A DNA stretch of 64,000 nt from Chitinophaga sp. (lineage in GTDB: Bacteria; Bacteroidota; Bacteroidia; Chitinophagales; Chitinophagaceae). Both the position numbers and the translations under genes were made by a program. This document shows, piece after piece, positions 10,982-53,079 of this stretch (positions within the stretch are counted from its first letter, which is position 1; each line of letters starts with the position of its first letter). The DNA lies in NCBI RefSeq assembly GCF_039596135.1, contig NZ_JBCNKH010000001.1:330781-394780 (forward strand), read 5' to 3'. The notes under the pieces are model-generated. The model was given only the letters and a program-made list of their open reading frames with translations, did not search any database and was not told the origin of the DNA.

Positions 10982-11313
10982 TCCTGGTCACCCACTTAAT
11001 ATATTATATAACCCCATTCTATTGGTTGCTATAGCAACCAGTGCGGATTTTCTATGCATATATTAAACTAATTCTCAACACGATCTACTTCACTGAGGGT
11101 AAAATACGTACACTTTTACCGCCCGCACTTATTATATTCTAACAATTGCCTATACTTTTTTAATCTTTTCTAAATTTTTAGTGTTATACGAATGTTTTAA
11201 TAAAAAATACCGGCTTCCTTTAGTATCTTTATACCGTTCCCGAAACAATTACGGTACCTCCACCGCGCCCTGAGAAGGGTGAAGTGTGTGCCAAGGTCAA
11301 AAAATCTAAACGA

Positions 11314-28963: not shown

Positions 28964-31087
28964 TTAAAAGAATTTAGCACGATTGTCTTCAATCTTATTC
29001 AGTTTCTTCAGCACTTCATACAGCTGACCACCCTGATCCAGTGTACCTTTCACAGTTTGCTCATACTGAGTTGCGATAGAAACAGGATCCAGACTCTGCG
29101 TATTTGGTACGAAGTTGTCAACCTTCACTACATACACACCCGCGTTACCTTCAATTGGTGCGGTTACTTTACCCACACCCCATGCTTTATTGAAGATAGC
29201 ACCTACTACTCTTGGTTCAAAACCCATAGAAGCAATAAATGGAGTAGAGAAATTTACATTGTCAGCTTTCAGCTGAGGCTGATTTACAGCAGCGGCAGCA
29301 GCTTCCAGGGTAGCTGGAGATTTCAGCTTAGCAATCAGCTGCTCAGCTTTCTTCTCTTTCTTCACCAGTCCTTCTACTTCCGGTCTTACTTCATCCAGCG
29401 TTTTAGTACCTTCTGCACGGATACCAGTCAATACAGCTACTACATATTTACCATCGAAGGTGAACACAGTGCTCACATCACCTTTCTTAGCATCGTAAGC
29501 CCAGCGAACCAGTTCACGTGCCTGGCCAATACCTGGAATTACGAAATCCATCGGACGGAGATTATCAGCAATACGTTTGTTCAGACCTTTTTCCTGAACA
29601 GTCTTTTCGAAAGTCTTTGCATCGTGGTTCTGTGCAGCAAATTCATTGGCTGCAGCATAAGCTTTGCTATCAGTTTCATTGCTCGCTTCAACTGGTTTAC
29701 CCAGGTAAGCTACTTTCAGCGCAGGGCCAAAGTTCTTCTGGCTCATAATCTGGATCAGGTGATAGCCAAACTGAGTTTTTACCACTTTCAGTTCGCCAGT
29801 TTTACCATCCAGCGCAAAGTTTTTGAATTCAGGAACGAAGGAAGAAGACGGAGTTACATCATATTCACCGCCATTTTCTTTGCTACCTGGATCATCAGAG
29901 TACTGAGAAACCAGGGCTTTGAAGTCTGCGCCGCCTTTTACAGCTGATTCGATGCTATCGATACGGATCTTAGCCAGGGAATCAGACAGACCACCAGGGT
30001 TCTGAGGATTAGCAGAAGCAATTAATATATGACGCACCTTTACGCTATCTGGTAAAGTTTTGCGATCCATCATCTTTGCGTATACGATCAGGTTGTTGTC
30101 GTAATAAGGTCCAAACGTGCTACCTACTGGCAGACTAGCGATGGTATCTTTCTGAGGAACCATCAGTGCGGATTTAGCAACATAACCATCAAAGTATGGA
30201 ATATCGGAATTGCGTTTTACGAAGTTTTCGATGCCCGCAACACCGGTAGTATCCATTTCATCTTTTGCTTCGAGCAATACTTTCAGTGCAGCAGCAGTAT
30301 CCTGTGCGGAAGGCAGTGCATTGAAAGAGATATAGTCTACACGACGACCTTCTTCTGATTTGAAGTTAGCCTTATGTTTATTAATATATGCATTCAGTTC
30401 GCCATCGGTTACCGCGATAGTAGAATCCGGGATAGATGCATATGGAACAGATACATAAGATACGTTTGCAAACTGTGAATTATCTTTTATCTGAGCTTCA
30501 GCCAGCCATTTAGGATAATATACGCCACCTTTAATGAGGGATACATATTTTTCCTGCATTCTCGACCTTACAATATAGCTTTCCATTTGTTTCAGCGCAT
30601 TTCTCATTCTGCCGGTCTGATCCTGACCTACAGAAGACAGTGCCTGCTGTAAAGCAGCGCGGTCAAACTGACCAGTTTTTCTGTCTGTGAACTGCTGTAA
30701 TACAATTGGGTTCGGTTCTTTACCATTGAACTGATCTACCAGTTCATTTTCAGTTACCTGAATACCCAGTTTATCATACTGGGCAGTCATGATTTGTTCG
30801 CTCACGAACTGGTTCCAGGCCTGCTCACGCGCATACTGCTGAACTTGTTCATTCAGGGTACCGGTTGGGCTTTGCTGACGTGCAGCAGCTTCGGCATCCT
30901 GGATCATTTGCTGATACTGGGTGAAATCTAACTCTTCACCATTTACTTTACCCACTGTAGTAGAGCGGCGCATGAGGGAGTTTCTGCCGAAAAAGGCATC
31001 CTGCAGCAGGAAACTGACAATAGCCACGCAGATCACTACTACGATCACCACGGCATATTTATCCCTGATCTTCTGAATAACTGACAT
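28964..31087 (-). CDS. membrane-anchored peptidylprolyl isomerase / periplasmic chaperone (PpiD/SurA-like)
   Basis: 707 aa with an N-terminal TM anchor. SurA_N-like chaperone regions flank a parvulin segment (VRHILIAS ... FGYHLIQ). Confidence 0.8.
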   Translation of the reverse strand: MSVIQKIRDKYAVVIVVVICVAIVSFLLQDAFFGRNSLMRRSTTVGKVNGEELDFTQYQQMIQDAEAAARQQSPTGTLNEQVQQYAREQAWNQFVSEQIMTAQYDKLGIQVTENELVDQFNGKEPNPIVLQQFTDRKTGQFDRAALQQALSSVGQDQTGRMRNALKQMESYIVRSRMQEKYVSLIKGGVYYPKWLAEAQIKDNSQFANVSYVSVPYASIPDSTIAVTDGELNAYINKHKANFKSEEGRRVDYISFNALPSAQDTAAALKVLLEAKDEMDTTGVAGIENFVKRNSDIPYFDGYVAKSALMVPQKDTIASLPVGSTFGPYYDNNLIVYAKMMDRKTLPDSVKVRHILIASANPQNPGGLSDSLAKIRIDSIESAVKGGADFKALVSQYSDDPGSKENGGEYDVTPSSSFVPEFKNFALDGKTGELKVVKTQFGYHLIQIMSQKNFGPALKVAYLGKPVEASNETDSKAYAAANEFAAQNHDAKTFEKTVQEKGLNKRIADNLRPMDFVIPGIGQARELVRWAYDAKKGDVSTVFTFDGKYVVAVLTGIRAEGTKTLDEVRPEVEGLVKKEKKAEQLIAKLKSPATLEAAAAAVNQPQLKADNVNFSTPFIASMGFEPRVVGAIFNKAWGVGKVTAPIEGNAGVYVVKVDNFVPNTQSLDPVSIATQYEQTVKGTLDQGGQLYEVLKKLNKIEDNRAKFF

Positions 31088-31233
31088 ATATTATATAGTC
31101 TAAATTTTTTAAGGAAAGCAAAAATAGAATAAAATAACTGTAACTACAAAACAGTTTTTTTTGGCTCAAACCCAATACAGTAAAGGGTTTCATCGAAAAT
31201 TACGGTATAAGTATTTTATCTTTCATTCACAGG

Positions 31234-31242
31234 TTATCCACA
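31234..31242 (+). promoter_or_regulatory. perfect DnaA box TTATCCACA
   Basis: Exact 9-mer. Preceded by TCATTCACA (31223-31231) with a 2-nt spacer. Confidence 0.6.
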
Positions 31243-31457
31243 TTAAGGTTAAAAAAGACAGTATTGTATACACTCTAAACCAGCTCCCAGAGGTCCGCTA
31301 CTGACGTTTATTTCGGGCTTAAACCACTTAACGATTTTAAGGGTTCAATATTCACATTTTAGATTGTCCAGATTCTTGATTCACATCTAAATGTGTACAA
31401 AAGTGAAAGTAAAACTAAAAATGGGAAATGCATAGAGAAATAATTTTTGAGCTCGTT

Positions 31458-31466
31458 TTATCCACA
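31458..31466 (+). promoter_or_regulatory. perfect DnaA box TTATCCACA
   Basis: Exact 9-mer in the 767-bp non-coding region upstream of nadA. Confidence 0.6.
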
Positions 31467-31854
31467 TGACCTGTTAAAAAACCGGCCTTTTGTGTTCAAT
31501 AACCTCTGAAAAACCCAGGTTCGATGACCGTAAAACTAAATTTGTTATTTCTTTAAATGTTGGTCTGAAGAAAAAATGGCTCGTTTTGTGAATTGTTATA
31601 CCCTGTAGTTAACATTTTTTTAATACTGGATACTCAAACAAAATATTCACGCAATACGAAATCCACCGATGTGGATATAAGTAGCAAAAATCAATGCTAT
31701 GGCCGAAATGGGCTGTTAATTTCATGTGAATAGAACAGGCAAAAAGAATAACAACTACATTTGTACACGGTGGCAAAAATTACTTTCCCCATATTCACAG
31801 CCCTAATAGTAGTGGGTTTTTCTTTTTTAAAAAGAATAAATTATAAATATAGAT

Positions 31855-32862
31855 ATGATAAGGGAGCTCGAAATCGCAAAAAAAGATTTGCAACGAAAAG
31901 GTTTTTTGGATTTGCCGGTCAATTCGCATTTAGATCTTTTTGAGGAAATCGAAAGATTGAAAAAAGAAAAAAATGCAATCGTCCTCGCGCACTATTATCA
32001 GGAACCAGATATTCAGGATGTAGCAGATTATATCGGTGACAGTCTCGGACTTAGTCAACAGGCTGCCAAAACCGATGCTGACATAATCGTTTTTGCCGGG
32101 GTGCACTTTATGGCCGAAACCGCAAAAATTCTGAGTCCGCAAAAAAAGGTGCTCTTACCCGACCTGAAAGCGGGTTGTTCACTGGCTGACAGCGCACCTC
32201 CGGAGCTGTTCCGCAAGTTCAAAGAAAAACATCCGGACCACCTGGTTATTTCCTACATCAACTGTTCTGCCGGGATTAAAGCACTCAGCGACATCATTTG
32301 TACCTCATCTAATGCCGAAAAGATCATCGAGAGCGTACCGAAGGACCAGCCGATCATTTTTGCCCCCGACAGGAATTTAGGGGCTTATTTGGCCAAAAAA
32401 ACGGGTAGAAACATGTTGCTCTGGAATGGTGCCTGCATGGTTCACGAGATCTTCTCCCTGGAAAAGATCTCCCGACTCAAAATTCGCCATCCAAAGGCCA
32501 AGGTGCTGGCACATCCGGAATGTGAGGCAGCTGTACTGGAAGTAGCTGACTATATAGGCTCCACTACCGGTATCCTGAACTTTTCCAAAAAGGATGACGC
32601 CAGGGAATACATCGTGGTGACTGAAACAGGGATCCTTCATCAGATGCAGAAAGAAAATCCGGGCAAAACTTTTATACCGGCACCGCCCAACAATGCCTGT
32701 GCTTGTAATGACTGTCCGCACATGAAACTTAATACGCTGGAAAAGCTTTACCTGTGTATGGAATACGAACAGCCGGAAATCACTATGAACGAACAACTCC
32801 GTATAGCGGCCAAAAAGCCCATTGAAAGGATGCTGGAGATTAGTGCCCAGGCTGGTTTATAA
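31855..32862 (+). CDS. nadA: quinolinate synthase
   Basis: 335 aa. Motifs [29 protein letters not shown] and the Cys ligand region CNDCPHMK. Confidence 0.95.
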
Positions 32863-32912
32863 TTTAAAATATTGAAATTCAAATAGTTACGAAATAATTA
32901 TTTGAATGGAAG

Positions 32913-32942
32913 ACCCGGTTATTCATTTAACCGGGTTTTTTT
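32913..32942 (+). terminator. intrinsic terminator of nadA
   Basis: Stem ACCCGGTT/AACCGGGT followed by TTTTTTT. Confidence 0.8.
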
Positions 32943-33082
32943 GTGCCCATGAATGCCCTGTAGTTTTACTATACTATATATAATGGTGGGGATATCTATG
33001 GGATTAAATTGTGGAAGGCTTCCTGAATGAACCGCTTGAGAATTGAATAAAATTTCAATGCCTGGGGGTTGGTAGGGTATAT

Positions 33083-33189
33083 TTAATTCTCAGGGCCTTC
33101 ACAAATGCAGATTATATACCCCTTTATCCACAGTTCATTCACAGAATGTGAAAATTAAGACTGAAAATAAAAATGAAGGCGCTGAGAAT
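33083..33189. repeat. 107-bp repeat unit A bounded by inverted TTAATTCTCAGGGCCTTCA / TGAAGGCGCTGAGAAT arms
   Basis: Aligns along its length with unit B (shared TTTAATTCTCA..GCCTTCA.AAA.GCAGAT ... TTATCCACA ... TGAAAATAAAAATGAAGGC.CTGAGA). Confidence 0.75.
33124..33132 (+). promoter_or_regulatory. perfect DnaA box TTATCCACA
   Basis: Exact 9-mer. Followed by TCATTCACA (33135-33143) after a 2-nt spacer. Lies inside 107-bp repeat unit A. Confidence 0.6.
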
Positions 33190-33580
33190 CGCGTAGAATT
33201 ATTCTGTTCCGCCCATTGTCGACTTCGCTTCATTCTAAAGCCCTTCAATTACAATTTTACTTTTCTTATTAACAAAATTCTTACACGTCCCCTATGTGTA
33301 TAATGAAATCAATAGGTAATTGACATATGATGTGTATTACCCTATAATTAAATGTGAAAGTATTGTTGAATGAAGGCCCTGAGATTTTAATGGAAAACGC
33401 AAACAAGGGTAGGGTAGTGTTTGTTTAATTCTCAGGGGCTTTAAAAAAGAAGGCTTTATAGTTGCGATGAAATTTGACTATCTGGGGTGCAATAAATGTC
33501 ATTAAATTCTCAGGGTGTTCGTGTATAAAGGGCGTGAGAATTATGTGGAAATGTTAATAATGGGAATTGAAGAGGTCTAT

Positions 33581-33687
33581 TTAATTCTCAACGCCTTCAT
33601 AAAAGCAGATATTTTCCACTATTATCCACATTAAATTAACAAAGCGCGAGAAATAAATTGAAAATAAAAATGAAGGCCCTGAGAGTT
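33581..33687. repeat. 107-bp repeat unit B bounded by inverted TTAATTCTCAACGCCTTCA / TGAAGGCCCTGAGAGTT arms
   Basis: Homologous to unit A, with the same length and a central DnaA box. Confidence 0.75.
33622..33630 (+). promoter_or_regulatory. perfect DnaA box TTATCCACA
   Basis: Exact 9-mer. Preceded by TTTTCCACT (33612-33620). Lies inside 107-bp repeat unit B. Confidence 0.6.
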
Positions 33688-33800
33688 ACGCACAGTATGA
33701 TCAACTGGGTATAACCCGGACTATTTGATTCTCAGGGCTTTCAAATATGAAATTAGTCAGTGCCTTTTTCCACAAATGTGGGTAAATGCCTATTCACAAT

Positions 33801-34499
33801 TCACAAAAGTCCACCGTTTACATTGAGCACTGTACCGTTTATGTATGAATTATGCACAACTGTTTCGATGAGGTTAGACACATCCTGTGGATTACCTATT
33901 CTGCCTACAGCGATACCCTGTGCGTAGTTTTCAAAGGCAGCGCTTTTCTCCTCCTTGTTCAGAAAATTCCACCAATCGGTGTCAATTACACCTGGTGAAA
34001 CGGCATTGATGCGTAATGGTTTCAATTCCTTGGCGAGGATAGGTACCATCAATTCCAGGGCGCCGTTGATGGCTGCCAGACCGGCTGTACCTGGTAGTTT
34101 GGCTGTGGAAGATGCTGCTGTGATGATAGTAATGCTCCCATTTTTGTCTAGCCAGGGAAGTGCGGCCTGAATTGTTTGCAGGTGTGGCCAGAATTTGCCT
34201 TCAAACCCGGCACGCAGATCCTCCAGGTCTAATGTGGCGAATGGGCCGCCTCCTTTGGCACTGCTCAGGGTAAGGATCAGGTGATGAAATTGGCCATTCC
34301 GGGTAAAGAACTCTTTCAATGCAGTAACATTAGCACTATCTAAAGAGACAGCAGTGATACCGGGGGCTGCCGTTCTGGCTGCAGCTAGTTTTTCTTCACT
34401 ACGACCGGTGACTGTTACTGATGCACCTTTATCGGCAAGCAATTTTGCGGTAGCAAGTCCAATTCCGGATGTACCACCGGCGATGATTATTTTTTCCAT
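33801..34499 (-). CDS. SDR family oxidoreductase
   Basis: 232 aa with a Rossmann motif AGGTSGIGLATAK and short-chain dehydrogenase length and layout. Confidence 0.8.
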   Translation of the reverse strand: MEKIIIAGGTSGIGLATAKLLADKGASVTVTGRSEEKLAAARTAAPGITAVSLDSANVTALKEFFTRNGQFHHLILTLSSAKGGGPFATLDLEDLRAGFEGKFWPHLQTIQAALPWLDKNGSITIITAASSTAKLPGTAGLAAINGALELMVPILAKELKPLRINAVSPGVIDTDWWNFLNKEEKSAAFENYAQGIAVGRIGNPQDVSNLIETVVHNSYINGTVLNVNGGLL

Positions 34500-36330: not shown

Positions 36331-36573
36331 ATGTTCCACGTGGAACATTTTAAAATTTGTTAAGGGCTACCTCATAGAGGTAGCCTTTTTTATTGCAACT
36401 TCAACATAGCTATAGTCTGGTCTTAGTGCCGAAAGATCACCAATAGATCACCAAAAGGTCACCTCAATATCCCCGGGATATTGAGGTGACCTTTTGGTGA
36501 TAGGTTAGTGCGCTAGTTATGGTAAGACTATGCTATAGTTAGCATATAGTTTTAAATGTTCCACGTGGAACAT
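36331..36573. repeat. nested inverted-repeat element between ybeY and mnmG
   Basis: The identical 18-bp palindrome ATGTTCCACGTGGAACAT occurs at 36331-36348 and 36556-36573. With TTTAAAA flanks these form about 24-bp inverted termini. A central perfect 26-nt-arm hairpin lies at 36448-36500. Confidence 0.8.
36365..36392 (+). terminator. intrinsic terminator of ybeY
   Basis: Stem GGCTACCT/AGGTAGCC with a short loop, then TTTTTTATT. Confidence 0.75.
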
Positions 36574-36593
36574 AATATGTGCGTCCTTGGTTG

Positions 36594-36601
36594 TACCTTT
36601 G
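36594..36601 (+). promoter_or_regulatory. possible Bacteroidota -7 promoter box (TAnnTTTG) for mnmG
   Basis: Exact TACCTTTG, 23 nt upstream of ATG 36624 and 21 nt downstream of the second ATGTTCCACGTGGAACAT palindrome. Confidence 0.35.
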
Positions 36602-36623
36602 CATTTCTATTATAAATAAAGTT

Positions 36624-38492
36624 ATGTTTCCATCTTACGATGTTATAGTGGTAGGCGCAGGACATGCCGGTTGCGAAGCAGCGGCGGCTGCCGCGAATAT
36701 GGGTTCAAAGGTTCTTTTGGTAACCATGAACATGCAGACTATTGCCCAAATGAGTTGCAACCCAGCTATGGGTGGTATAGCAAAAGGGCAAATAGTAAGA
36801 GAGATCGATGCTATGGGTGGATACTCTGGTATCGTGACTGACCAGTCCATGATCCAGTTCCGTATGTTGAACAGATCTAAGGGGCCTGCTATGTGGAGCC
36901 CTCGTACTCAAAATGATAGAATGCTCTTTGCTGCCAAGTGGAGAGAAGCATTGGAACAAACACCCAATGTAGATTTCTATCAGGATATGGTGAAAGGTCT
37001 TCTTGTAAAAGATGGCATTTGCTATGGTGTAGTGACAGGCCTTGGACATGAAATCAAATCAAAAAGTGTAGTGCTCACCAACGGAACTTTTCTGAATGGG
37101 GTAATGCACATAGGCGATAAACAATTTGGTGGAGGTAGGGTTGCTGAAAAAGCTGCAACCGGAATCACCGAACAGTTGGTTTCTCTTGGATTCGAAAGTG
37201 ATCGCCTCAAAACTGGAACGCCTCCCCGCATAGATGCCCGAAGTTTAGATTATTCAAAGATGGAAGAGCAAAAGGGTGATGATGTCATCACCGGTTTCTC
37301 TTACTTGGATATTGAGAAGATTAAACCTGAGCAACAAAGAAGTTGCTTCATTACCTACACCAGCGATGAAGTACATGAAATGCTGAAGACGGGTTTCGAC
37401 CGGTCACCAATGTTCCAGGGTAGAATACAGGGTAGGGGACCCCGCTATTGTCCAAGTATCGAAGACAAAATAAATAGGTTCGCCGAAAGAGACAGACACC
37501 AGTTGTTCGTAGAACCGGAAGGTTGGAACACCGTAGAAATTTATGTAAACGGATTTTCCACTTCCCTTCCTGAAGATGTACAATATAAAGCCCTGCAGTT
37601 AGTGCCGGGTTTTGAAAATGTCAAGATGTTCCGTCCGGGTTATGCCATCGAGTATGATTATTTTCCACCTACCCAATTGCAGTTTTCGCTGGAGACCAAA
37701 CATATTCAAAACCTGTTCTTCGCAGGTCAGATCAATGGTACTACCGGTTATGAGGAAGCAGCTTGTCAGGGTTTGATGGCAGGTATCAATGCTCACCTCA
37801 AGGCAACCGGCCAGGCACCTTTTGTACTGAAAAGGAGTGAAGCATATATTGGGGTTCTCATCGATGACCTGATCAACAAGGGTACAGATGAACCTTACCG
37901 TATGTTTACCTCCCGTGCAGAATTCAGAACAATACTCCGCCAGGATAATGCAGACCTGAGACTAACTGAGCAGAGTTATAAAATTGGTTTGGCAGGAGAG
38001 AACAGGATGGAAAAAGTGAGAACGAAATCAGAAGGCGTAGAAAAAATTAAAGCTATTCTGAAAGAACTACCGATCGATCCTGAAGATATTAACCACTTCA
38101 TGGTAGAGAAAAATACCTCTCCACTGACTCAAAGGATTCGTGCTTACCAGATTTTGTTACGTCCATCTATGGATATTTTCTCTATGAAAAACAATGTAAC
38201 AAAAATGAAAAATGCACTCGCAGCATTCGATGATGAAACTTTGGAACAGGCAGAAATCCAGATCAAATACGAAACGTATATCGAAAAGGAAAATGAACTG
38301 GTAAAAAGAATGAGTCAACTCGAAGACCTGATAATTCCAGATAGTTTTGATTATACAAAATTGGTATCTCTGAGTGCAGAGGCAAGACAGAAATTTAATA
38401 AAATCAGACCCCGTACATTAGGGCAGGCATCCAGGATTAGTGGGGTAAATCCAAGTGATGTACAGATCCTGATGGTATATATGGGGAGGTAA
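36624..38492 (+). CDS. mnmG: tRNA uridine 5-carboxymethylaminomethyl modification enzyme MnmG (GidA)
   Basis: 622 aa from ATG 36624. FAD fold YDVIVVGAGHAGCEAA, motif SCNPAMGG, and a conserved C-terminal RISGVNPSD. The track start at 36579 is an upstream extension. Confidence 0.95.
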   Translation: MFPSYDVIVVGAGHAGCEAAAAAANMGSKVLLVTMNMQTIAQMSCNPAMGGIAKGQIVREIDAMGGYSGIVTDQSMIQFRMLNRSKGPAMWSPRTQNDRMLFAAKWREALEQTPNVDFYQDMVKGLLVKDGICYGVVTGLGHEIKSKSVVLTNGTFLNGVMHIGDKQFGGGRVAEKAATGITEQLVSLGFESDRLKTGTPPRIDARSLDYSKMEEQKGDDVITGFSYLDIEKIKPEQQRSCFITYTSDEVHEMLKTGFDRSPMFQGRIQGRGPRYCPSIEDKINRFAERDRHQLFVEPEGWNTVEIYVNGFSTSLPEDVQYKALQLVPGFENVKMFRPGYAIEYDYFPPTQLQFSLETKHIQNLFFAGQINGTTGYEEAACQGLMAGINAHLKATGQAPFVLKRSEAYIGVLIDDLINKGTDEPYRMFTSRAEFRTILRQDNADLRLTEQSYKIGLAGENRMEKVRTKSEGVEKIKAILKELPIDPEDINHFMVEKNTSPLTQRIRAYQILLRPSMDIFSMKNNVTKMKNALAAFDDETLEQAEIQIKYETYIEKENELVKRMSQLEDLIIPDSFDYTKLVSLSAEARQKFNKIRPRTLGQASRISGVNPSDVQILMVYMGR

Positions 38493-42309: not shown

Positions 42310-45300
42310 ATGCAGGAATCAATCCTCTCCAAACTGGAAGCCTCAAGAAGGGAGCTACTCGACCTGGGACTGCGTAACCCTTTATTAAACTACCGCTTAC
42401 CGGTTAGTCGTGGAGTTCATATCGATCAGGAAAAGAGTGCCAACGTATATGAAGTGTTGGTGAAGCAGGGAAAGGCGATGACGTTTTTACCCAAACCAGG
42501 AAATAAAGAAAACAAGGAAAAAGCTATTACCCCGGAAGATAATACAGCCAGTATGCTGGACGACCCCAATGCATTTTTGAAAGAAGAAGTATTGGTAACT
42601 CCACCTGCTACTGACAATGCAGAACTTCCGAAGGAAGAGCAAAAAGAAGGATCTACCGCGCTACCTGAAACAGTAGTGTATGATACCCGTTTGCAAACTA
42701 CTGAAGCTGCTGCCGCACTACAAAACAGATTGCTCAATACTTACTATGCTGCACGTACCAGTTTGGAAGAACAAGGTGTGAATATTCTCTTCCTTACATT
42801 AGGTATGCTGCAGTGGTATGAAAAAGATAATACCAAAGAAGCAAGACAGGCGCCTTTGATATTGATACCGGTATCACTGGAAAGAAGTAGTGCCCGGGAA
42901 CGTTTTCGTTTGCGCTATACCGGTAGTGATGTAGAAATGAACTTAAGCTTACAAACCAAAATTAAAACTGATTTCGGAATTGTGTTGCCTGACATGCCGG
43001 AAACGGATGAAATTTCTATTAATGACTACCTGCAGGAAATAGCAGATGCGGTATATGGTATGCCGAAGTGGGAAGTGAAAATGGATACTGTTGAATTAGG
43101 ATTTTTCTCCTTCGGAAAACTAATGTTGTACCACGACCTGGATAGTGAAAACTGGCCTGCAGATGAACAACCGGTTGTACATCCTGTATTACAGAGTTTA
43201 TTCGGTGCAGGATTCAGTGAAGGGGAATCTGGTGTAAGTGATGAAACATTTATCGACACTGAAACCAATGCCCATGAAATGCACCAGGTAGTAGATGCAG
43301 ATGGTTCACAATTGCTTGCCATGCTCGCTGTGCAGGAAGGAAAAAACCTGGTGATACAGGGACCTCCCGGTACAGGTAAATCACAAACCATTACGAACCT
43401 GATTGCAAATGCAATTGGTGAAGGAAAGAAAGTACTCTTCGTTGCAGAAAAAATGGCAGCGCTGGAAGTGGTGAAGAGAAGGCTGGATAGTATTCAACTG
43501 GGCGATGCATGTTTAGAACTGCATAGTCATAAAGCAAATAAAAAAGAACTACACCAGGAACTGCGTCGTACACTGGAATTAGGTAAACCAGCAATCATGC
43601 AACTACAACAGGAAGTTGCGTTACTACATGAGTACAGACGTGAGTTGAATGATTACTGTTTAGCAGTGAATGCGCCTGTTGGTAAAAGTGGATTGACACC
43701 GCAACAACTGATGGGTTACCTGTTGCAATTAAAAGAAGCAGCAGGTGATCTGATTTTACCACGTATACCTATTCCTGACATTGCAAACTGGGAAGCCAGC
43801 AATATGCAACGTGCAGAGAATATGGCGAACAGAATCACTGCGCGATTAGGTGAAACAGGAATGCCGTCTGCATTATTGTTCTGGGGAAGTCAGCTAACTA
43901 TATTAACACCATCAGAACAGGAGAAGCTCATACCACTCATGCAACAAACTGTTGCCACTATCAAAAGCCTGCAACATGAAAGTGCAATGATTGCTGCGCA
44001 GGTAGGTATGCCCATGCCATTGAATAAGAAAGATACAATGGATCTTTCTTATGTAGTGCAGATGGCTTCTGTACGTCCTGATCTGGCAGGTGTGAATATT
44101 TCGAATGTAGCCTGGCTGCAAAGAAAAGAAGACATCAAAGAACTGTTGCAGACAGGAAAAAGATTAGCACAGATTCGCCAGGTGTATGATTCAATACTGA
44201 TACCAGAAGCATGGGAACAAAATGTGTTGGAGATCAGACAAAACCTGTTAGCATATGGTGAGAAATGGTTCAAGTTTGCTATTGGTGATTACAATCGAAG
44301 TAATCGCCAGCTGGCTGCTTTGTGTAGAAATGGTGCGCCTTCTGATGTGGCTGCGAAACTTGCTTGTGTAGACGCTATTATGGAAGCAAAGCGATTGGAT
44401 AAACAGGTGCAGGACTACGAAACACTTGCCAGGGATTTGTTTGGTCAGCGCTGGCAAAAAGGATTCAGTAACTGGAATGAGCTGGAAACAATCTCTAATT
44501 ATTTAAGTGATGTACACAGACAGGTTAATATAGGTTCATGCGATAAAGTGATTCTCTCTTATCTTGAAAAAAATGAACCGGTTGCTGCGGCAAAGCAATA
44601 CCTGGATACGCTGTTAAAATATTTACAGCAACATGGTACTGCTATCGAACAAATAGTTACAGCGACTGCATTCAATGAACAGATTCGTTACAAAGAAATC
44701 ACTCCTTTATTACAACGTTCTTACGAAGATCAGATTGTACTGTTGGAATCATGGATAGCAGGGTTGCCAGAAATCCATCTGATGATATCGTGGAATAATT
44801 TAGCAACATCTGCTATCAATGAAGGATTGGAATCTTTGATAGATGCAGTGGTTTATTGGCCGGAAGCACAGAAAGGATTGAAACCGGCTTTGCAAAAAAC
44901 ATGGTATGAATACCTGTATGAACAGGCATTGGTGAAGCATGCAGCACTGAGAAAATTTGAAAGAGCGAGTCATGAATCATCAGTGAAGCAGTTTGTAAAA
45001 CTGGATACACTCGATCTGCAATATAATCGTGCGCGTGCTGCGTTGAAACATTGGGATGGTATACCACCATTAGATGCGGGTGGACAAGTGAATGTACTAC
45101 GTACTGAATTCAATAAGAAAGCAAGACATATGCCTATCCGCAAACTGGTACAGGTAGCAGGATTGGCAATACAGGCTATCAAACCGGTATTTATGATGAG
45201 CCCATTGTCTATTGCTAACTTTTTACCACCAGGATCATTGCAGTTTGACCTGGTGATTTTTGATGAGGCTTCGCAGGTAAGACCGGTAGATGCATTAGGT

Positions 45301-47079
45301 GCATTGCTGAGAGGAAAGCAATTGGTTGTAGTTGGTGATAGCAAACAGATGCCACCAGGCAGTTTCTTTGATTCATTATTGAAAGAAACTGATGACGAAG
45401 AAAATGTAACTGCCGATATGCCAAGTATATTAGGGATGTGTGATGCACAGGGTGCACCACAACGTATGTTGCGCTGGCACTATCGTAGTCGTCATGAATC
45501 ATTGATCACATTATCTAATCAGGAATTTTACGAGAACAAACTGGTGATCTTTCCAAGCCCTGGTGCTACACATCAGATGGGATTGATTTATCATCACCTG
45601 AAAGATACTGTTTACGATCGTGGTAAGACGCGTACCAACCCGCAGGAAGCAAATGCTATTACAGAAGCAGTGATCAGGCATGCAAAAGAACATCCTGATT
45701 TAAGCTTAGGGGTAGTAGCATTTAGTACGGCACAGATGCAGGCGATACAGGAATCGCTGGAAGCAGCGAGAAAGAAACTGCCTGAAGTAGAATCATTCTT
45801 TAAAGCACATCCGCATGAACCATTCTTTGTAAAGAACCTGGAAAATGTACAGGGGGATGAGCGTGATGTTATTTACATCAGTATAGGATATGGCCGTACG
45901 GCAGATGGATCTGTAAGTTTAGCATTTGGTCCTTTGAATAATGAAGGCGGTGAGAAGAGGCTGAATGTATTAATTACGCGTGCAAAACAGAGATGCGAAG
46001 TATTTACGAACCTGACGGCTGATGACATAGATCTGAACCGTACGGATAGTGAAGGTGTGAAAGCGTTGAAGAACTTCCTCTACTTTGCACAGCATGGACA
46101 ATTGTATACATCATCTGCTGATGGATGGCCGGCAAGAATTCCTTTTGAGGAAGAAGTAGCGAAACACTTGCAGGCAGCAGGATATACTGTACATAAACAG
46201 GTGGGTAGTAAAGGCTTCTTTATTGATCTGGCTATTTCTGATCCTGAACATCCGGGTAAATATATTATAGGTATTGTGTGTGATGGTGAGGGGTATAATT
46301 CTGCACGTTCCGCCAGAGACAGAGATCGGTTGAGGCAACAGGTAATGGAAGATATGGGATGGAACTTGTATCATGTATGGAGTACGGATTGGTTCAGGCA
46401 TCCTGCCAGGGAAATTAAGCGATTATTAGCTGCGGTTGAACAGGCAAAAACGAATGAAGTAATTCCGGAACCGGAGCAGGAGGTAGCAGAAGATTTTACT
46501 ATGGTGAGAGAAGATGAAGATATGACGATGCCTGAATTACCATTGTATGAAACTGCCATACTGCCGATGGAAATATCTACGAAAGAATTGCATGCGCATG
46601 GGTTGGATAAACTAAGAAGCTGGTTAGAAAAAATTGTGCAGGTAGAGAGCCCGGTGCATACAGAAGAAGTAGCAAGAAGATTGATTGAGGCGGCAGGTGT
46701 AGCAAGAGTGGGTAGCCGTATACGTGAAACGTTGAAGCAGGCAATATCAAGTGCGGAGGAGAGTGGTAGTATAGTGGTGAAAGAACCATTCCTGTGGGAT
46801 GCAAAAATGGAAGTACCGGTATTGAGGAATAGGGCGAATATGCCTGCGGCATCAAGGAAAGTAATGTATATAGCACCGGAGGAAATGACGGTAGCAATAG
46901 AGAAAGTAGTGAGAGATGCGGTAGCGATTACAGAAGAAGCCGTGATACCGTTAGTGGCGAAGGCATTAGGTTTTACAAGGGCGACGGAAGATTTGAAAAC
47001 GGAATTATCAGGTGCGATAAAACAAGCGATTGAAGCAGGGGTGATACGTGAGGACGATGAATGGCTAAAAATAAATTAA
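42310..47079 (+). CDS. DUF4011-type Upf1-like SF1 helicase fused to a Vsr/DUF559-like PD-(D/E)xK endonuclease and a DUF3320-like C-terminus
   Basis: 1589 aa. N-terminus LLDLGLRNPLLNYR (DUF4011-like). Walker A GPPGTGKS (nt 43360-43383). Motif II DEASQ (45262-45276). VVGDSKQMPP, WHYRSRHESL, VITRAKQR. Nuclease-like FFIDLAISD...IGIVCDGEGYNSARSARDRDRLRQQVMEDMGWNLYHVWSTDWF. Confidence 0.85.
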   Translation: MQESILSKLEASRRELLDLGLRNPLLNYRLPVSRGVHIDQEKSANVYEVLVKQGKAMTFLPKPGNKENKEKAITPEDNTASMLDDPNAFLKEEVLVTPPATDNAELPKEEQKEGSTALPETVVYDTRLQTTEAAAALQNRLLNTYYAARTSLEEQGVNILFLTLGMLQWYEKDNTKEARQAPLILIPVSLERSSARERFRLRYTGSDVEMNLSLQTKIKTDFGIVLPDMPETDEISINDYLQEIADAVYGMPKWEVKMDTVELGFFSFGKLMLYHDLDSENWPADEQPVVHPVLQSLFGAGFSEGESGVSDETFIDTETNAHEMHQVVDADGSQLLAMLAVQEGKNLVIQGPPGTGKSQTITNLIANAIGEGKKVLFVAEKMAALEVVKRRLDSIQLGDACLELHSHKANKKELHQELRRTLELGKPAIMQLQQEVALLHEYRRELNDYCLAVNAPVGKSGLTPQQLMGYLLQLKEAAGDLILPRIPIPDIANWEASNMQRAENMANRITARLGETGMPSALLFWGSQLTILTPSEQEKLIPLMQQTVATIKSLQHESAMIAAQVGMPMPLNKKDTMDLSYVVQMASVRPDLAGVNISNVAWLQRKEDIKELLQTGKRLAQIRQVYDSILIPEAWEQNVLEIRQNLLAYGEKWFKFAIGDYNRSNRQLAALCRNGAPSDVAAKLACVDAIMEAKRLDKQVQDYETLARDLFGQRWQKGFSNWNELETISNYLSDVHRQVNIGSCDKVILSYLEKNEPVAAAKQYLDTLLKYLQQHGTAIEQIVTATAFNEQIRYKEITPLLQRSYEDQIVLLESWIAGLPEIHLMISWNNLATSAINEGLESLIDAVVYWPEAQKGLKPALQKTWYEYLYEQALVKHAALRKFERASHESSVKQFVKLDTLDLQYNRARAALKHWDGIPPLDAGGQVNVLRTEFNKKARHMPIRKLVQVAGLAIQAIKPVFMMSPLSIANFLPPGSLQFDLVIFDEASQVRPVDALGALLRGKQLVVVGDSKQMPPGSFFDSLLKETDDEENVTADMPSILGMCDAQGAPQRMLRWHYRSRHESLITLSNQEFYENKLVIFPSPGATHQMGLIYHHLKDTVYDRGKTRTNPQEANAITEAVIRHAKEHPDLSLGVVAFSTAQMQAIQESLEAARKKLPEVESFFKAHPHEPFFVKNLENVQGDERDVIYISIGYGRTADGSVSLAFGPLNNEGGEKRLNVLITRAKQRCEVFTNLTADDIDLNRTDSEGVKALKNFLYFAQHGQLYTSSADGWPARIPFEEEVAKHLQAAGYTVHKQVGSKGFFIDLAISDPEHPGKYIIGIVCDGEGYNSARSARDRDRLRQQVMEDMGWNLYHVWSTDWFRHPAREIKRLLAAVEQAKTNEVIPEPEQEVAEDFTMVREDEDMTMPELPLYETAILPMEISTKELHAHGLDKLRSWLEKIVQVESPVHTEEVARRLIEAAGVARVGSRIRETLKQAISSAEESGSIVVKEPFLWDAKMEVPVLRNRANMPAASRKVMYIAPEEMTVAIEKVVRDAVAITEEAVIPLVAKALGFTRATEDLKTELSGAIKQAIEAGVIREDDEWLKIN

Positions 47080-47080
47080 C

Positions 47081-47111
47081 AAAAAGGTCCTGCCAGAGGC
47101 AGGACCTTTTT
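47081..47111. terminator. bidirectional terminator shared by the helicase-nuclease gene and the vWA/AAA+ operon
   Basis: AAAAAGGTCCTGCC-AGA-GGCAGGACCTTTTT lies in the 38-nt gap between the two convergent stop codons. Confidence 0.85.
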
Positions 47112-47117
47112 GTTAAT

Positions 47118-48248
47118 TTATTTTTTTAATACAAGATCTTCTCTTGCTGCCCAGGTATTTATATCCTGTTTACTCAACGCGGCTGCCATCATATCGGGAA
47201 ACTTATCCGGCGTACATGCAAATACAGGAATACCCAAATTGGAAAGGAACTGTGCATTGTCATGATCGTAATAAGGTGCACCATCATCATTCAATGCGAG
47301 TAATACAATGACCTGTACACCAGCGGCTACTAATTCGGCAGCGCGCTTACGCATACGATCATTACTACCCCCTTCAAATAAGTCAGTGATTAACACTAAT
47401 ACGGTATCTGTTGGCCTGGTAATAATCTGCTGGCAATAATTTAGTGCTAACTGTATATCTGTGCCACCACCCAACTGTACACCGAATAACAAATCGACCG
47501 GATCTTTCAGTTCTTCTGTCAGATCAGCCACAGATGTGTCGAAGACCACCATCTTTGTTTTGATAGCAGGAATAGATGCCATTACAGAACCGAAAATACC
47601 GGAGTATACAACTGATGTACCCATAGAGCCACTCTGGTCCAGGCAGAGCACGACGTCTTTTAATGAGGTCGTTTTGCGGCCATAGCCAATGCGGGTTTCA
47701 GGAATAATTGTTTTATACTCAGGCTGATAGTGACGCAGGTTTTTTAAGATGGTCGCATGCCAGTTGATTTCATTATGTTTAGGACGACGATTCCTGATAC
47801 TGCGATGTAAGCTACCGGTGATTGCCTGTTGTGTGGGCTGTGTGAGTTTCTTCAATAGTTCTTCCACGACCCTGCGTACTACCTGTCTGGCAGTATCTTT
47901 TGTTTTGTCAGGAATGGCGTGGCGCAATGTTAATAAGGTTGCTACCAAGTGAACATCAGGTTCTACATTTTCCAGCATCTCTTTTTCAAAGAGCATCTGT
48001 GTAATGTTCAATCGCTGCAGTGCATCGCGCTGCATGACCTGCACCACAGAAGCAGGGAAGAATGTACGGATGTCACCGAGCCAACGGCTTACGTTAGGAG
48101 AGGAGGGACCGAGTCCGCCTTTCTTTTCACTATCGTAGAGTGCTTCCAGTGCCTGGTCCATTTTCAATTCGTCGCCAGTGAGATTGAAACCTGTGCCGTC
48201 AGATTCTTTACCACCGAGTACGAGTCGCCATTTATGTAAGTTGTCCAT
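47118..48248 (-). CDS. CoxE-type von Willebrand factor A domain protein (YehP-like)
   Basis: 376 aa. The N-terminal helical region is typical of the VWA_CoxE family. MIDAS motif DQSGS at nt 47639-47625. Start is 4 nt after the upstream stop. Confidence 0.8.
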   Translation of the reverse strand: MDNLHKWRLVLGGKESDGTGFNLTGDELKMDQALEALYDSEKKGGLGPSSPNVSRWLGDIRTFFPASVVQVMQRDALQRLNITQMLFEKEMLENVEPDVHLVATLLTLRHAIPDKTKDTARQVVRRVVEELLKKLTQPTQQAITGSLHRSIRNRRPKHNEINWHATILKNLRHYQPEYKTIIPETRIGYGRKTTSLKDVVLCLDQSGSMGTSVVYSGIFGSVMASIPAIKTKMVVFDTSVADLTEELKDPVDLLFGVQLGGGTDIQLALNYCQQIITRPTDTVLVLITDLFEGGSNDRMRKRAAELVAAGVQVIVLLALNDDGAPYYDHDNAQFLSNLGIPVFACTPDKFPDMMAAALSKQDINTWAAREDLVLKK

Positions 48249-48252
48249 TGAT

Positions 48253-50478
48253 TTAGTTTTTAAAGCCCAGCATTTTCATCACAATCGGAATACCTTTTTC
48301 TGCACGTGTTGCATCAAAATGCACTTCGGCAGTTGTTGATACAGCATTGCCTGTAGTAACACCGCTCTTTGCTTTTTCACCGAGCTTTCTTCTTTCAGGT
48401 TTACTGAATCCTGAAAATGTTCTTCTCAGTAAAGGTAGCAATTGAGTAAATGTATCCTGGTTCAGCTGATTCATCCAGTTGTTTACCACTGTCCACAGAT
48501 CATTGTCTACTAACAATAATGTGCCACTGCCTTTTAAGAAGCCTTCCAGCCATGCTGCAGCTACTGCAGGAGGATTGGCGGTAGACATGGCATAACTGAA
48601 TGCTTTCACCAGCTCTGCACCTGTAATTTGCCTGTGATCAGACAGTAAGCGGGTAGCATATCCACCGATCACGGCGGAGGTGTTATTATTATGAGCGATA
48701 TAAGATAATGTCTGTTGCCATTGTGTGCTAAGATCATCCTGTTGCAATAAGAGAATCGCATCGTTCATGTTGTAGAATAACTCCAGCAATTGTAATGCGG
48801 CATCTTCTGCAATACTTGTACAGGCAGCAGGCAAACTGATGCAGGTGCGGGTGATCATACCGTTAATGATACCTTCTACCAGCGCTGCGTCTGTTTTACG
48901 TACGTTGCCATATCTGCTTATTTGTACCAGGTTTGGTAGTACCGTCATTAGCTGCATGACATCGCCGGTAGCAGCAGCGAGGTTATTGATTTGCTGGATC
49001 AATAAGTCGATAGCAGCATCCAATTCGGCGGGAATAGCGCTTTCCAGTAAGTCGCATACTTCTTTCAGGGTAGTAGCTGATTGTGCCCGATATTTTACAT
49101 AACTGTTGGTTGCCTCTTCTACAGTGTTGCCCCAGCTACCCCGTTCAATGATATCAATGGATAAAGACGGATCCCATTGTAAGCGCCATTGTTCCTTGAA
49201 AGTGCCTTTGCCGGATACATCGTATCGGTCCCCCCATTTGATACCTAGCAATTCCAGGCGGTGCAGGAAGATGCTTCGCTCCAGGTCATTTTCTTTTCTG
49301 AGGTCTAAAGTGTAATCTTTGAAATCGGCGGTCTGTGGTAAGCGCAGTTTCTTTTGCAGCTTTTCAATGTCTGTCTGTAATGGTGGACGAGGTACATCGA
49401 TAGGTACTTCACCAATCTTATCACTGACGATCAATGCTTTTTCAATCAGTTTGACCAGGATGTCTTCCCCATTACACAATACACTCAACGTGGCTTCATT
49501 CAGTTCTTCCAAACCGGGTCTTGGTAAACCACGTAAGGATGCTAATGCAGTTGCCAGACGAACAGCTTCCATCACATGTGCAACAGAAATATCTTTTTGT
49601 TCTTCCCTGAAGAGTCTTGCTACGCGTGCCATCCAGCGGGAGCCATCATCGGTGGGATAGTGCCACAGGTGCTCATACCAACCGGGTGAATTGATGCCTG
49701 CACCATAACCACTGTTGTAACTCAAACGGTTATATGTCCAGGGTACCCACGATACCGCCGTTTTTACTTTGGGCAATCCTTTCAGCAGTTCATTGTCATC
49801 TTTTGCTTTGGGCATGTGCGTGAGTGCTGGTGCATGCCATGCACCACATACTACGGCAATTTCTGTGTACATTTCCTTTTCTGCCTGCCGGATGGTTTTA
49901 CGCATCCAGGCTTCACGCAATTGTTCTTCCCTGTCGTAGGGGAGCGGGAGGTCTGTACGCAGGGCATGCATGCCTTCGGTAATGGCATCGAATACCTGCT
50001 CTTCATCCTGCCGGTATTCAAATTCATGTTCCCACCAGGTTTCTTCTTCTTCAAAACCGGCAGCAGCAGCCAGCCATGCAATAGGATTGCGCCTGAGCGT
50101 TTCTGCATCCGGAATAGCAATGCTATTATTTAAAGAAGAATCAGCAGTAGGTTGATGACGCAGGTCAAACTGATACGCCATTGGCAGATCCATGAATTTA
50201 ACAGGAATCTTATTTTGTCTTGCATATAGTATTGCCTGCCACTCCGGAGAGAATTCCGAGAATGGATAGAACACTGCTTTTTTTGGATCATCGGGTTGGA
50301 ATACGAGAATCGCTACCGGAGGTTTCAATTCATCATGTCCCACCCATTCCAGTATACCATCGGCATCTGGCGGGCCTTCTACCAGCACGATGTCCGGTTT
50401 GATCTTTTCCAGGGCAGCGCGCACTCTCCTGGCAGAGCCGGGACCATGATGCCGTATGCCCAGTATATGAGTTGACAT
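48253..50478 (-). CDS. DUF5682-like protein (YehM-like), function unknown
   Basis: 741 aa. N-terminus MSTHILGIRHHGPGSARRVRAALEKIKPDIVLVEGPPD, as I recall for the DUF5682/YehM family. Start is 9 nt after the AAA+ stop. Confidence 0.7.
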   Translation of the reverse strand: MSTHILGIRHHGPGSARRVRAALEKIKPDIVLVEGPPDADGILEWVGHDELKPPVAILVFQPDDPKKAVFYPFSEFSPEWQAILYARQNKIPVKFMDLPMAYQFDLRHQPTADSSLNNSIAIPDAETLRRNPIAWLAAAAGFEEEETWWEHEFEYRQDEEQVFDAITEGMHALRTDLPLPYDREEQLREAWMRKTIRQAEKEMYTEIAVVCGAWHAPALTHMPKAKDDNELLKGLPKVKTAVSWVPWTYNRLSYNSGYGAGINSPGWYEHLWHYPTDDGSRWMARVARLFREEQKDISVAHVMEAVRLATALASLRGLPRPGLEELNEATLSVLCNGEDILVKLIEKALIVSDKIGEVPIDVPRPPLQTDIEKLQKKLRLPQTADFKDYTLDLRKENDLERSIFLHRLELLGIKWGDRYDVSGKGTFKEQWRLQWDPSLSIDIIERGSWGNTVEEATNSYVKYRAQSATTLKEVCDLLESAIPAELDAAIDLLIQQINNLAAATGDVMQLMTVLPNLVQISRYGNVRKTDAALVEGIINGMITRTCISLPAACTSIAEDAALQLLELFYNMNDAILLLQQDDLSTQWQQTLSYIAHNNNTSAVIGGYATRLLSDHRQITGAELVKAFSYAMSTANPPAVAAAWLEGFLKGSGTLLLVDNDLWTVVNNWMNQLNQDTFTQLLPLLRRTFSGFSKPERRKLGEKAKSGVTTGNAVSTTAEVHFDATRAEKGIPIVMKMLGFKN

Positions 50479-50487
50479 AATATGCGT

Positions 50488-51564
50488 TTACAGGTCCCGG
50501 AATGCCCGGTAAATATCTTTCCACTCGTCTCTTGTTTTGATGACAGTTTCGAGGTATTCCTGCCATACAATTTTATCCTGCACAGGATCTTTGATTACAG
50601 CGCCGATAATACCTGCTGCAAGATCTGCTGCTTTGAGCGCGCCATCCCCAAAGTAAGCCGCCATTGCCAGCCCATTGTTCACTACAGAAATAGCTTCGGC
50701 AGTGCTGAGTGTTCCGCTTGGTACTTTGATCTTGGTCTTGCCATCGGCAGTAATACCGCTACGCAGTTCACGGAAGATGGTAACGATACGACGAATCTCT
50801 GCCAGTGCTGGTTTTTCGGCCGGGAGGTCCATTACTTTTTCATAGCTTTCTACTCTTCTCTTCACGATGTCGATCTCTTCTTCCATATTGTCAGGAACAG
50901 GAAGAATAACGGTATTAAAACGGCGTTTTAAGGCGCTGGAAAGGTCGTTTACACCTTTGTCCCTGTTATTGGCTGTGGCGATGATATTAAAGCCTTTTTG
51001 GGCCATTATTGCTGTGTTCAGCTCAGGGATAGGGAGTGTTTTTTCAGAGAGGATGGTGATGAGTGTATCCTGTACATCTGCACCGATACGGGTCAGCTCT
51101 TCAATACGGGCGATCTTACCATCTTTCATAGCGCGCATCACGGGTGTTTCCACGATAGCGCCTGTGGTAGGACCTTCTGCCAGCAGGCGGGCATAGTTCC
51201 AGCCATAACGGATGGCTTCTTCACCGGTACCGGCAGTACCCTGTACGATCATGGTAGAATCACCGCTAATAGCTGCTGCAAGATGTTCGCTCACCCAGCT
51301 TTTGGCAGTACCTGGCAAACCGTAGAGCAACAATGCCCGGTCGGTAGTAAGGGTTGCTACGGCGATTTCCATGAGACGGCGGTTACCAATGTATTTAGGT
51401 TGTACTTCAAATCCATTTTTCAGGGTACCACCAATGAGGTAAGTAACAACAGCTTGTGGAGATAGTTTCCACATATAAGGACGCTTTTCAGTATCCTGCT
51501 TTTGCAGTTCTTCCAGTTCCTGTGCGAACAGCTGTTCCGCGTGTTGACGTAAAATGTTGGACAT
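50488..51564 (-). CDS. MoxR/AAA_5-type AAA+ ATPase (YehL-like)
   Basis: 358 aa. Walker A GLPGTAKS (nt 51321-51298), Walker B-like KIARIEE, ATANNRD and ALKRRF. Confidence 0.85.
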   Translation of the reverse strand: MSNILRQHAEQLFAQELEELQKQDTEKRPYMWKLSPQAVVTYLIGGTLKNGFEVQPKYIGNRRLMEIAVATLTTDRALLLYGLPGTAKSWVSEHLAAAISGDSTMIVQGTAGTGEEAIRYGWNYARLLAEGPTTGAIVETPVMRAMKDGKIARIEELTRIGADVQDTLITILSEKTLPIPELNTAIMAQKGFNIIATANNRDKGVNDLSSALKRRFNTVILPVPDNMEEEIDIVKRRVESYEKVMDLPAEKPALAEIRRIVTIFRELRSGITADGKTKIKVPSGTLSTAEAISVVNNGLAMAAYFGDGALKAADLAAGIIGAVIKDPVQDKIVWQEYLETVIKTRDEWKDIYRAFRDL

Positions 51565-51587
51565 TTTTTATCTGCTTAAAAAGGTGA

Positions 51588-53063: not shown

Positions 53064-53079
53064 AAGTTTTGTCCCGCGA

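Follow-up and report, generated by a model that had tools for sequence, protein, structure and literature searches.

Does the region around nadA, the quinolinate synthase gene, hold the chromosomal replication origin of Chitinophaga, and is that origin split in two by the gene? The question arises from a 64-kb stretch of Chitinophaga sp. (assembly GCF_039596135.1, contig NZ_JBCNKH010000001.1, positions 330,781 to 394,780; hereafter the window). A sequence-only reading of it had noticed DnaA boxes in two long non-coding regions on either side of nadA, close to mnmG/gidA, and had proposed a bipartite oriC or else a DnaA-titrating or regulatory locus. The two non-coding regions and the position of mnmG/gidA were confirmed by open reading frame (ORF) and Pfam scans. 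Judged from several lines of evidence, the locus is very likely the chromosomal replication origin of a Chitinophaga species. It is orthologous to an origin predicted in the DoriC database and shares an identical unwinding block with it. It also contains conserved DnaA boxes, a minimum of duplex stability and a reversal of GC skew, and is accompanied by parS-like sites and mnmG. The genes and box clusters concerned are laid out as follows.

28964-31087, minus strand: gene for a PpiD-like isomerase (ORF and Pfam scan)
31088-31854: ppiD-nadA spacer with DnaA-box cluster I, the proposed core oriC on the basis of box density and conservation
31855-32862, plus strand: nadA, between the two clusters (Pfam NadA, E = 1e-126)
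32863-33800: DnaA-box cluster II in a palindromic repeat zone, with seven boxes of at most one mismatch
36579-38492, plus strand: mnmG/gidA (Pfam GIDA, E = 7e-162)

A perfect DnaA box was defined as TTATCCACA, and a looser class allowed up to one mismatch. Perfect boxes occur four times in the window (31234, 31458, 33124 and 33622), only on the plus strand, compared with 0.68 expected, and none of 100 shuffled sequences reached four. The earlier claim of four perfect boxes in a single orientation flanking nadA is therefore upheld. Ten of the window's 26 boxes in the looser class fall within 31234-33886, a span of 2.7 kb in which about one would be expected. These ten include the one-mismatch boxes previously reported at 31670, 33295, 33766 and 33777, all of which are present, and two further ones at 33850 and 33886 that lie inside the 3′ end of an SDR gene. 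As also reported, TCATTCACA, the sequence of the E. coli R5M box, twice stands 2 nt from a perfect box (31223 and 33135).

Across loci from 36 Chitinophaga species, boxes with at most one mismatch reach 7.85 per kb in the ppiD-nadA spacer, compared with 0.47 per kb elsewhere in the loci. We mapped conservation by aligning the spacer from five and then 50 species; the percentages below refer to the latter alignment. The spacer is variable overall, and its conserved islands coincide with DnaA boxes (31223, TCATTCACA; 31234, TTATCCACA; 31349, TATTCACA; 31379, ATTCACA; 31457, TTTATCCACA; 31670, TGTGGAT) and with a block of DnaA-trios described below. At least eight boxes in the spacer are conserved. 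The features of cluster I upstream of the trio block are:

31119-31126, minus strand: TATTTTTG, a Bacteroidetes-type −7 motif and probable ppiD promoter, in a 96%-conserved island (31117-31137)
31223-31242, plus strand: head-to-tail pair TCATTCACA-gg-TTATCCACA, both boxes 94-96% conserved
31348-31356, plus strand: DnaA box variant ATATTCACA, with island TATTCACA 95% conserved
31377-31385, plus strand: DnaA box variant TGATTCACA, with island ATTCACA 91% conserved
31458-31466, plus strand: perfect DnaA box, with island TTTATCCACA 92% conserved
31537-31544, plus strand: conserved TAAATTTG, a putative −7 promoter-like motif facing nadA, in islands spanning 31530-31549
31670-31678, minus strand: DnaA box TGTGGATAT with one mismatch, in which TGTGGAT is 100% conserved
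31725-31733, minus strand: DnaA box variant TGTGAATAG, which is TGTGGATAG in most relatives (alignments)
31756-31763, plus strand: TACATTTG, a −7 motif (TAnnTTTG) and probable nadA promoter, in a 100%-conserved island (31747-31765)

Three conserved −7 motifs of the Bacteroidetes type (TAnnTTTG) are thus present in the spacer, one on the minus strand and two on the plus strand. Transcription from the presumed nadA promoter at 31756-31763 would cross the trio block and the AT-rich tract behind it, as fits transcriptional assistance of opening. The AT-rich tract at 31088-31140, one of three noted earlier, contains the conserved ppiD −7 motif and is probably a promoter instead of an unwinding element.

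Three further conserved elements were seen in cluster I. A small hairpin (AAACCC-N-GGGTTT, 31168-31192), 88-91% conserved in the 50 species, separates the ppiD promoter motif from the first box pair. The island at 31609-31623, TTAAC-ATTTTT-TTAA, has the TTAA-N7-TTAA spacing of alphaproteobacterial CtrA boxes. Like that island, a conserved TGTTAATTT at 31714-31722 is neither a DnaA box nor a promoter motif.

The 3′ end of the spacer, extending into the first bases of nadA, contains a compact arrangement of elements.

31783-31799, plus strand: tandem boxes, weak CTTTCCCCA and then (A)TATTCACA, in the order of the published C. pinensis and Niastella elements
31800-31814, minus strand: GCC spacer and DnaA-trios, 3′-GAT TAT CAT CAC-5′ on the bottom strand, equal to the C. 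pinensis DSM 2588 entry
31817-31862: candidate AT-rich DNA unwinding element, which includes the least stable 40-mer of the window

This 40-mer (31823-31862) has a stability of −36.9 kcal/mol, compared with a mean of −52.7 kcal/mol over the 64 kb, and directly follows the trios. Among the AT-rich tracts proposed earlier, only 31817-31854 is placed like an unwinding element, and the other two are not. The tract originally given as 31800-31854 starts with a GC-containing conserved block, and only 31817-31854 is its AT-rich part. A 24-nt block at 31793-31816, ATTCACAGCCCTAATAGTAGTGGG, is near-invariant. We scanned one genome per species across our collection for exact matches and found one copy per genome in 57 species, located 58-64 nt 5′ of the nadA ATG. 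All 57 are Chitinophaga, with the exception of a metagenome-assembled genome that bears the label Flavihumibacter.

For DoriC entry ORI93020100 (C. pinensis DSM 2588), the listed basal unwinding system (BUS) reads, 3′ to 5′, CAAAAGTGT ATAAGTGT CGG GATTATCATCAC (Pelliciari et al. 2021, PMC8287927, supplementary file 3), and Niastella koreensis has a close variant of it (PMC8287927). Window positions 31792-31814 (TATTCACA GCC CTAATAGTAGTG) are the exact complement of the last three parts of this element. The same 23 nt, comprising the second box, the GCC spacer and four trios, are therefore present in both species, as is a weak first tandem box, which reads CTTTCCCCA here and GTTTTCACA there; the species differ, and the published entry is a computational prediction. 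The ppiD-nadA spacer and the oriC predicted by DoriC for C. pinensis are orthologous. The DoriC prediction for another member of the Bacteroidetes, Cytophaga hutchinsonii, was confirmed by oriC plasmids (PMC3531139). The published BUS rule (a box with at most two mismatches, a spacer of at most 16 bp and three or more NAN trios along the strand read 3′-5′; Pelliciari et al. 2021) also returns this site, at 31791-31814, with box ATATTCACA (two mismatches), a 3-bp spacer and four trios.

Comparable arrangements occur outside the genus. Among 79 nadA loci from outside Chitinophaga, 28 combine an abutting box pair with a 3-nt spacer and a run of four or more NTA triplets, no further than 260 nt from nadA, compared with a background of 0.10 runs per kb. 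The TA of the triplets is constant in these 28 loci and the first base alone varies, as expected of 3′-NAT-5′ DnaA-trios. Abutting box pairs 5′ of nadA were found across Chitinophagales. Most loci from Chitinophagaceae and Sphingobacteriaceae have two to nine boxes (at most one mismatch) in the 1 kb 5′ of nadA, where the background is 0.1-0.6 per kb; the same count revealed no enrichment in Saprospiraceae, Lewinellaceae or cyanobacteria. The analysis places the candidate origin beside nadA throughout Chitinophagales, and probably in Sphingobacteriales as well, remote from any dnaA gene.

Base composition points in the same direction. Within the window, GC skew is −0.038 to the left and +0.087 to the right of the locus, and the cumulative G−C curve has its minimum at 32.8 kb. 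A gene-wise regression gave an orientation effect of 0.047 ± 0.013 and a side effect of 0.070 ± 0.013, and genes of either strand shift by about 0.14 in skew across the locus. The switch from negative to positive is of the origin type, not the terminus type, within the window. Of 53 related loci, 43 show greater skew to the right than to the left, although shared synteny means that these loci are not independent. Gene orientation speaks neither for nor against an origin, as had been stated, with 33% (left) and 43% (right) of coding bases running with the presumed forks. Located 2.5-3 kb to the right of the locus are mnmG and two parS-like sites:

36332-36347: parS-like site TGTTCCACGTGGAACA, a perfect palindrome between ybeY and mnmG, kept after ybeY in other Chitinophaga
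36557-36572: second parS-like site, the identical perfect palindrome, also between ybeY and mnmG

Other Chitinophaga loci (L094, L099, L117, L091 and L096) have one to four parS-like sites at the same place. The locus resembles the E. coli oriC in its combination of TTATCCACA and TCATTCACA (R5M) boxes, in the adjacency of mnmG/gidA and in having a GC-rich spacer followed by CTAATA... beside the box nearest to the unwinding element. Unlike in E. coli oriC, there are no 13-mers or GATC clusters here, and parS sites are present; TCATTCACA lies 2 nt from a perfect box here, whereas in E. coli it lies across an IHF site.

We found nothing specific in the literature on a Chitinophaga oriC or on a link between nadA and oriC, and no published description of the cluster or the palindrome array downstream of nadA. 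Only the palindrome array, specific to this locus, and the division of the boxes by nadA add to what databases contain. To our knowledge, no origin has been tested experimentally in the class Chitinophagia.

The second half of the question concerns cluster II, in which we recognised the following boxes.

33124-33143, plus strand: perfect box (exact TTATCCACA) with TCATTCACA, in reversed order relative to the pair at 31223
33295-33303, minus strand: DnaA box TGTGTATAA, from the scan allowing one mismatch
33622-33630, plus strand: perfect box (exact TTATCCACA), a paralogue of the 33124 module, unaltered in related strains
33766-33805: weak-box group TTTTCCACA, TGTGGGTAA, TATTCACA and ATTCACA; in locus L001 the corresponding box is perfect

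The boxes at 33124 and 33622 are located in two copies of a module of approximately 125 bp (33063-33190 and 33561-33688, families D2 and D6) and are therefore paralogous, not independent. In the 36 Chitinophaga species, the non-coding zone 3′ of nadA has 2.43 boxes per kb compared with 0.47 elsewhere, an approximately fivefold enrichment, with two or more boxes in only 18 of the 36. Compared with the window, a related strain (run X2) has no differences over 30900-32196 and 34 over 32422-33795; cluster II evolves much faster than cluster I. Both of its perfect boxes are unaltered in four diverged strains despite changed flanks, which suggests selection, albeit with weak statistics. BUS-rule matches in cluster II are not conserved, and the window scan found no extreme stability minimum there. 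Judged by its predicted boxes, cluster II is a genuine DnaA-box module that recurs without being universal.

These properties bear on a possible but less likely alternative: that cluster I alone is the origin and that cluster II, 1.3 kb away, is a DnaA-titrating or recycling locus similar to E. coli datA and DARS that would tune initiation timing. Like those loci, cluster II has strong boxes with neither a conserved unwinding module nor an extreme stability minimum. It also appears evolutionarily dispensable, given how many species have fewer than two boxes, and it evolves quickly, yet its perfect boxes are retained among strains. However, datA and DARS are located hundreds of kb from the E. 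coli origin, whereas cluster II is immediately beside the proposed core, closer to the second half of a B. subtilis or H. pylori origin. Furthermore, it is embedded in a repeat array, and no IHF-type site was identified in it.

The repeat array was found by a motif scan.

33027-33743: six repeat units of inverted 16-nt arms, TGAAGGCCCTGAGAAT and ATTCTCAGGGCCTTCA
33086, 33174, 33232, 33371, 33428, 33506, 33526, 33584, 33671 and 33728, both orientations: arms, with degenerate copies at 33027 and 33451

The ten arms fall at 33086-33743. No further copies with two or fewer mismatches were found in the rest of the window, and the only two matches with three mismatches are distant and look like chance. 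Genus-wide, the cores TTCTCAG and CTGAGAA reach a density of 2.44 per kb in the zone 3′ of nadA compared with 0.19 per kb outside it. Their spacing is quantised, with 22 nt from TTCTCAG to CTGAGAA, 52 or 60 nt back and a unit of 82-83 nt. The consensus of 78 units is ATTCTCAG-CGnnTTnnnAAnGCG-CTGAGAAT, followed by ATATTTTTT on the plus strand only; in its short form, the palindrome is ATTCTCAG-N15-CTGAGAAT, 38 bp in length with a period of approximately 82 bp. In a scan of the collection, the canonical palindrome was present in 13 Chitinophaga species, always on the contig with nadA and the origin and never elsewhere in those genomes, and most of these loci were verified to adjoin nadA. Confinement to one locus per genome led us to reject a dispersed element of the REP/BIME, REPIN or MITE type. 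The array does share with REP/BIME elements, and with sopC of the F plasmid, tandem units with an inverted repeat and regular phasing (here 82-83 bp). However, unlike the former it is restricted to one locus per genome, and unlike the latter it has no adjacent partition gene and canonical parS sites already nearby. The many palindrome matches in Microlunatus ginsengisoli proved to be a chance match to an unrelated family. Three of the five arm junctions in the window are expanded, and two of these expansions carry perfect DnaA boxes.

Whether the units act as folded structures was also considered. A first look at 36 units with exact cores hinted at compensatory change outside the core. Across 78 units, however, 75.2% of cells were paired compared with 74.6% in shuffles, and 116 of 500 shuffles were as high or higher. 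As covariation was unconfirmed, we treat the palindrome as a conserved sequence and not as a proven structure. Some units in the window fold better than shuffled sequences (z −3.5 to −6.4) and others do not. The array matched no Rfam family at gathering or relaxed thresholds. A search for RNA runs of this organism returned none, those listed carrying another organism label, probably that of a eukaryotic host; the single contig set that may derive from RNA, X25, is from a diverged relative and covers mainly coding regions. The array may consist of phased sites for a dimeric protein, of plus-strand terminators or small transcription units, or of hairpin-extruding DNA.

Several observations on the zone 3′ of nadA stand apart from the array. 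In three other loci (L003 at 12000-13100, and L092 and L104 in the distal part of the zone), approximately 10-20 TGTGGAWAA boxes recur with a period of approximately 62 or 125 bp, alternating with T-rich tracts. These arrays are far denser than any in the window, and these species may have their main DnaA-binding region 3′ of nadA. Chitinophaga sp. E66 (L006) has approximately nine tandem repeats of approximately 125 bp at 11250-12300, 3′ of nadA, which belong to an unrelated family and contain neither DnaA boxes nor the arm motif; the site seems prone to gaining tandem repeats. A box array in that locus, at 18.5 kb, was set aside as irrelevant because it is inside repetitive coding sequence. 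In the window, a full 12/12 match to the sigma-70 consensus TTGACA-17-TATAAT is present on the plus strand at 33320-33348, beside the box at 33295, where we estimate that approximately 0.001 such matches per 3 kb would arise by chance. The main sigma factor of Bacteroidota uses TTG / TAnnTTTG, so an E. coli-type consensus is unexpected here.

One account of the array makes the zone downstream of nadA a second, lineage-specific origin module. A phased array of ATTCTCAG-CGnnTTnnnAAnnCG-CTGAGAAT with a period of approximately 82 bp would recruit an origin-associated protein or extrude hairpins under torsional stress, and DnaA boxes would have been gained at repeat junctions in some lineages, including this one. 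We consider this account rather unlikely; if true, the zone would be an oriC accessory element of a new kind, in an origin split by a gene without involvement of dnaA. A second account, which we likewise doubt, is that the zone is unrelated to replication and consists of small transcription units, terminators or sites of another regulator, with boxes that are incidental or serve local transcription only. It draws on the terminator-like ATATTTTTT that follows each canonical palindrome on the plus strand only, on the stable hairpins formed by several units, on the perfect sigma-70-type promoter within the zone and on the quite different repeats in species such as E66. Against it are the fivefold genus-wide enrichment of boxes, the long regular arrays of boxes and T-rich tracts in some species, the lack of a matching Rfam family and the lack of significant covariation in the units. 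If the array has nothing to do with replication, an ordinary orthologue of a database-predicted origin remains.

The two clusters can now be set against known bipartite origins. The earlier proposal of a bipartite oriC stands in that two box clusters are split by a gene, as in B. subtilis (incA/B and incC around dnaA) and in the oriC1-dnaA-oriC2 region of H. pylori, where the unwinding element is likewise in one sub-region, beside that gene. The gene in question is nadA and not dnaA, so the defining feature of the B. subtilis and H. pylori bipartite origins is lacking. Cluster I also resembles the basal unwinding system of B. subtilis in its abutting boxes, short GC spacer, 3′-NAT-5′ trios and AT-rich tract. 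In contrast to H. pylori, the sub-region with the unwinding element is the strongly conserved one here, and its counterpart varies within the genus. A bipartite origin is no more than plausible.

Several points weigh against reading the locus as an origin, or as one with two halves. Unlike in B. subtilis, there are only four trios (31800-31814), and no dnaA gene was found in the 64-kb window by Pfam or by a scan of the remaining large ORFs. The BUS rule is unspecific, with 70 matches in the window, and is too permissive by itself, so that our call of the unwinding element rests on conservation and position. The 24-nt block is located between the likely promoter and the start codon of nadA and could for that reason be a 5′ untranslated region element or an operator. 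As for cluster II, 13 of the 36 species scored zero boxes 3′ of nadA, some of these zeros reflecting a failure to find the zone or a very short zone, and 24% of the genus's boxes there are on the plus strand, whereas those of the window mostly are. That the whole locus merely comprises DnaA-regulated nadA and ppiD promoters, with the true origin elsewhere, for example beside dnaA, is very improbable: three conserved promoter-like motifs among the boxes, a box overlapping the region 5′ of the presumed nadA promoter and the lack of dnaA in the window would fit, but they are set against a spacer that combines no fewer than eight conserved boxes with a tandem pair, trios and an extreme stability minimum, a skew reversal independent of gene strand with parS sites alongside, and the choice of the orthologous site in C. 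pinensis by the whole-genome method of DoriC.

Returning to the locus as a replication origin, we infer from sequence a model of where DnaA binds, which tract unwinds, which promoters are active and what cluster II might do. DnaA would occupy the strong boxes at 31234 and 31458 first and the weaker conserved boxes afterwards. From the abutting pair at 31783-31799, a DnaA filament would extend over the 3-bp GCC spacer onto the four trios. The AT-rich DNA at 31817-31862 would then melt and allow helicase loading there, and transcription from TACATTTG (31756-31763) through the AT-rich tract to nadA might aid opening. Cluster II is probably an accessory DnaA-binding module that could form a loop with the core or serve as a DnaA reservoir nearby, and it has grown inside the genus-specific palindrome array.

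The analysis yields a precise, genus-wide map of the candidate origin, from its boxes and the tandem boxes with trios to the unwinding tract, the promoter-like motifs and the parS sites. With this map, replicative plasmids based on oriC could be constructed for Chitinophaga, soil and rhizosphere bacteria for which few genetic tools exist. The palindrome array is a testable candidate for a new origin-associated binding site.

Among the genes of the window, nadA encodes a protein with 92% identity to that of Chitinophaga sp. YR573, the nearest genome found, and 86-88% identity to those of other Chitinophaga. Its other neighbours are genes for an SDR protein and an AraC-family regulator, and ybeY. 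Its terminator was read from the sequence:

32912-32942, plus strand: intrinsic terminator of nadA, a hairpin and a T-run

An Rfam search of the window at the gathering threshold detected only a tRNA at 60588; relaxed thresholds added only noise, with no NAD+ (nadA-motif) riboswitch. Located 30 kb from nadA, at 1011-2149, are genes for a pnuC-type nicotinamide mononucleotide transporter and an AAA_28 protein (NadR-like kinase); the proximity of these NAD salvage genes to nadA is probably a coincidence. Between 43 and 47 kb, GC skew rises as far as 0.25, which is unusually high. The region at 42310-54375 encodes a 1589-aa helicase-nuclease (DUF4011, AAA_11/12, REase_MTES_1575 and DUF3320). Beside it is an operon of VWA_CoxE, DUF5682, an AAA_5 ATPase, DUF5691 and a 431-aa protein without a Pfam match, and the layout of the two together is similar to that of NTPase-based conflict or defence systems.

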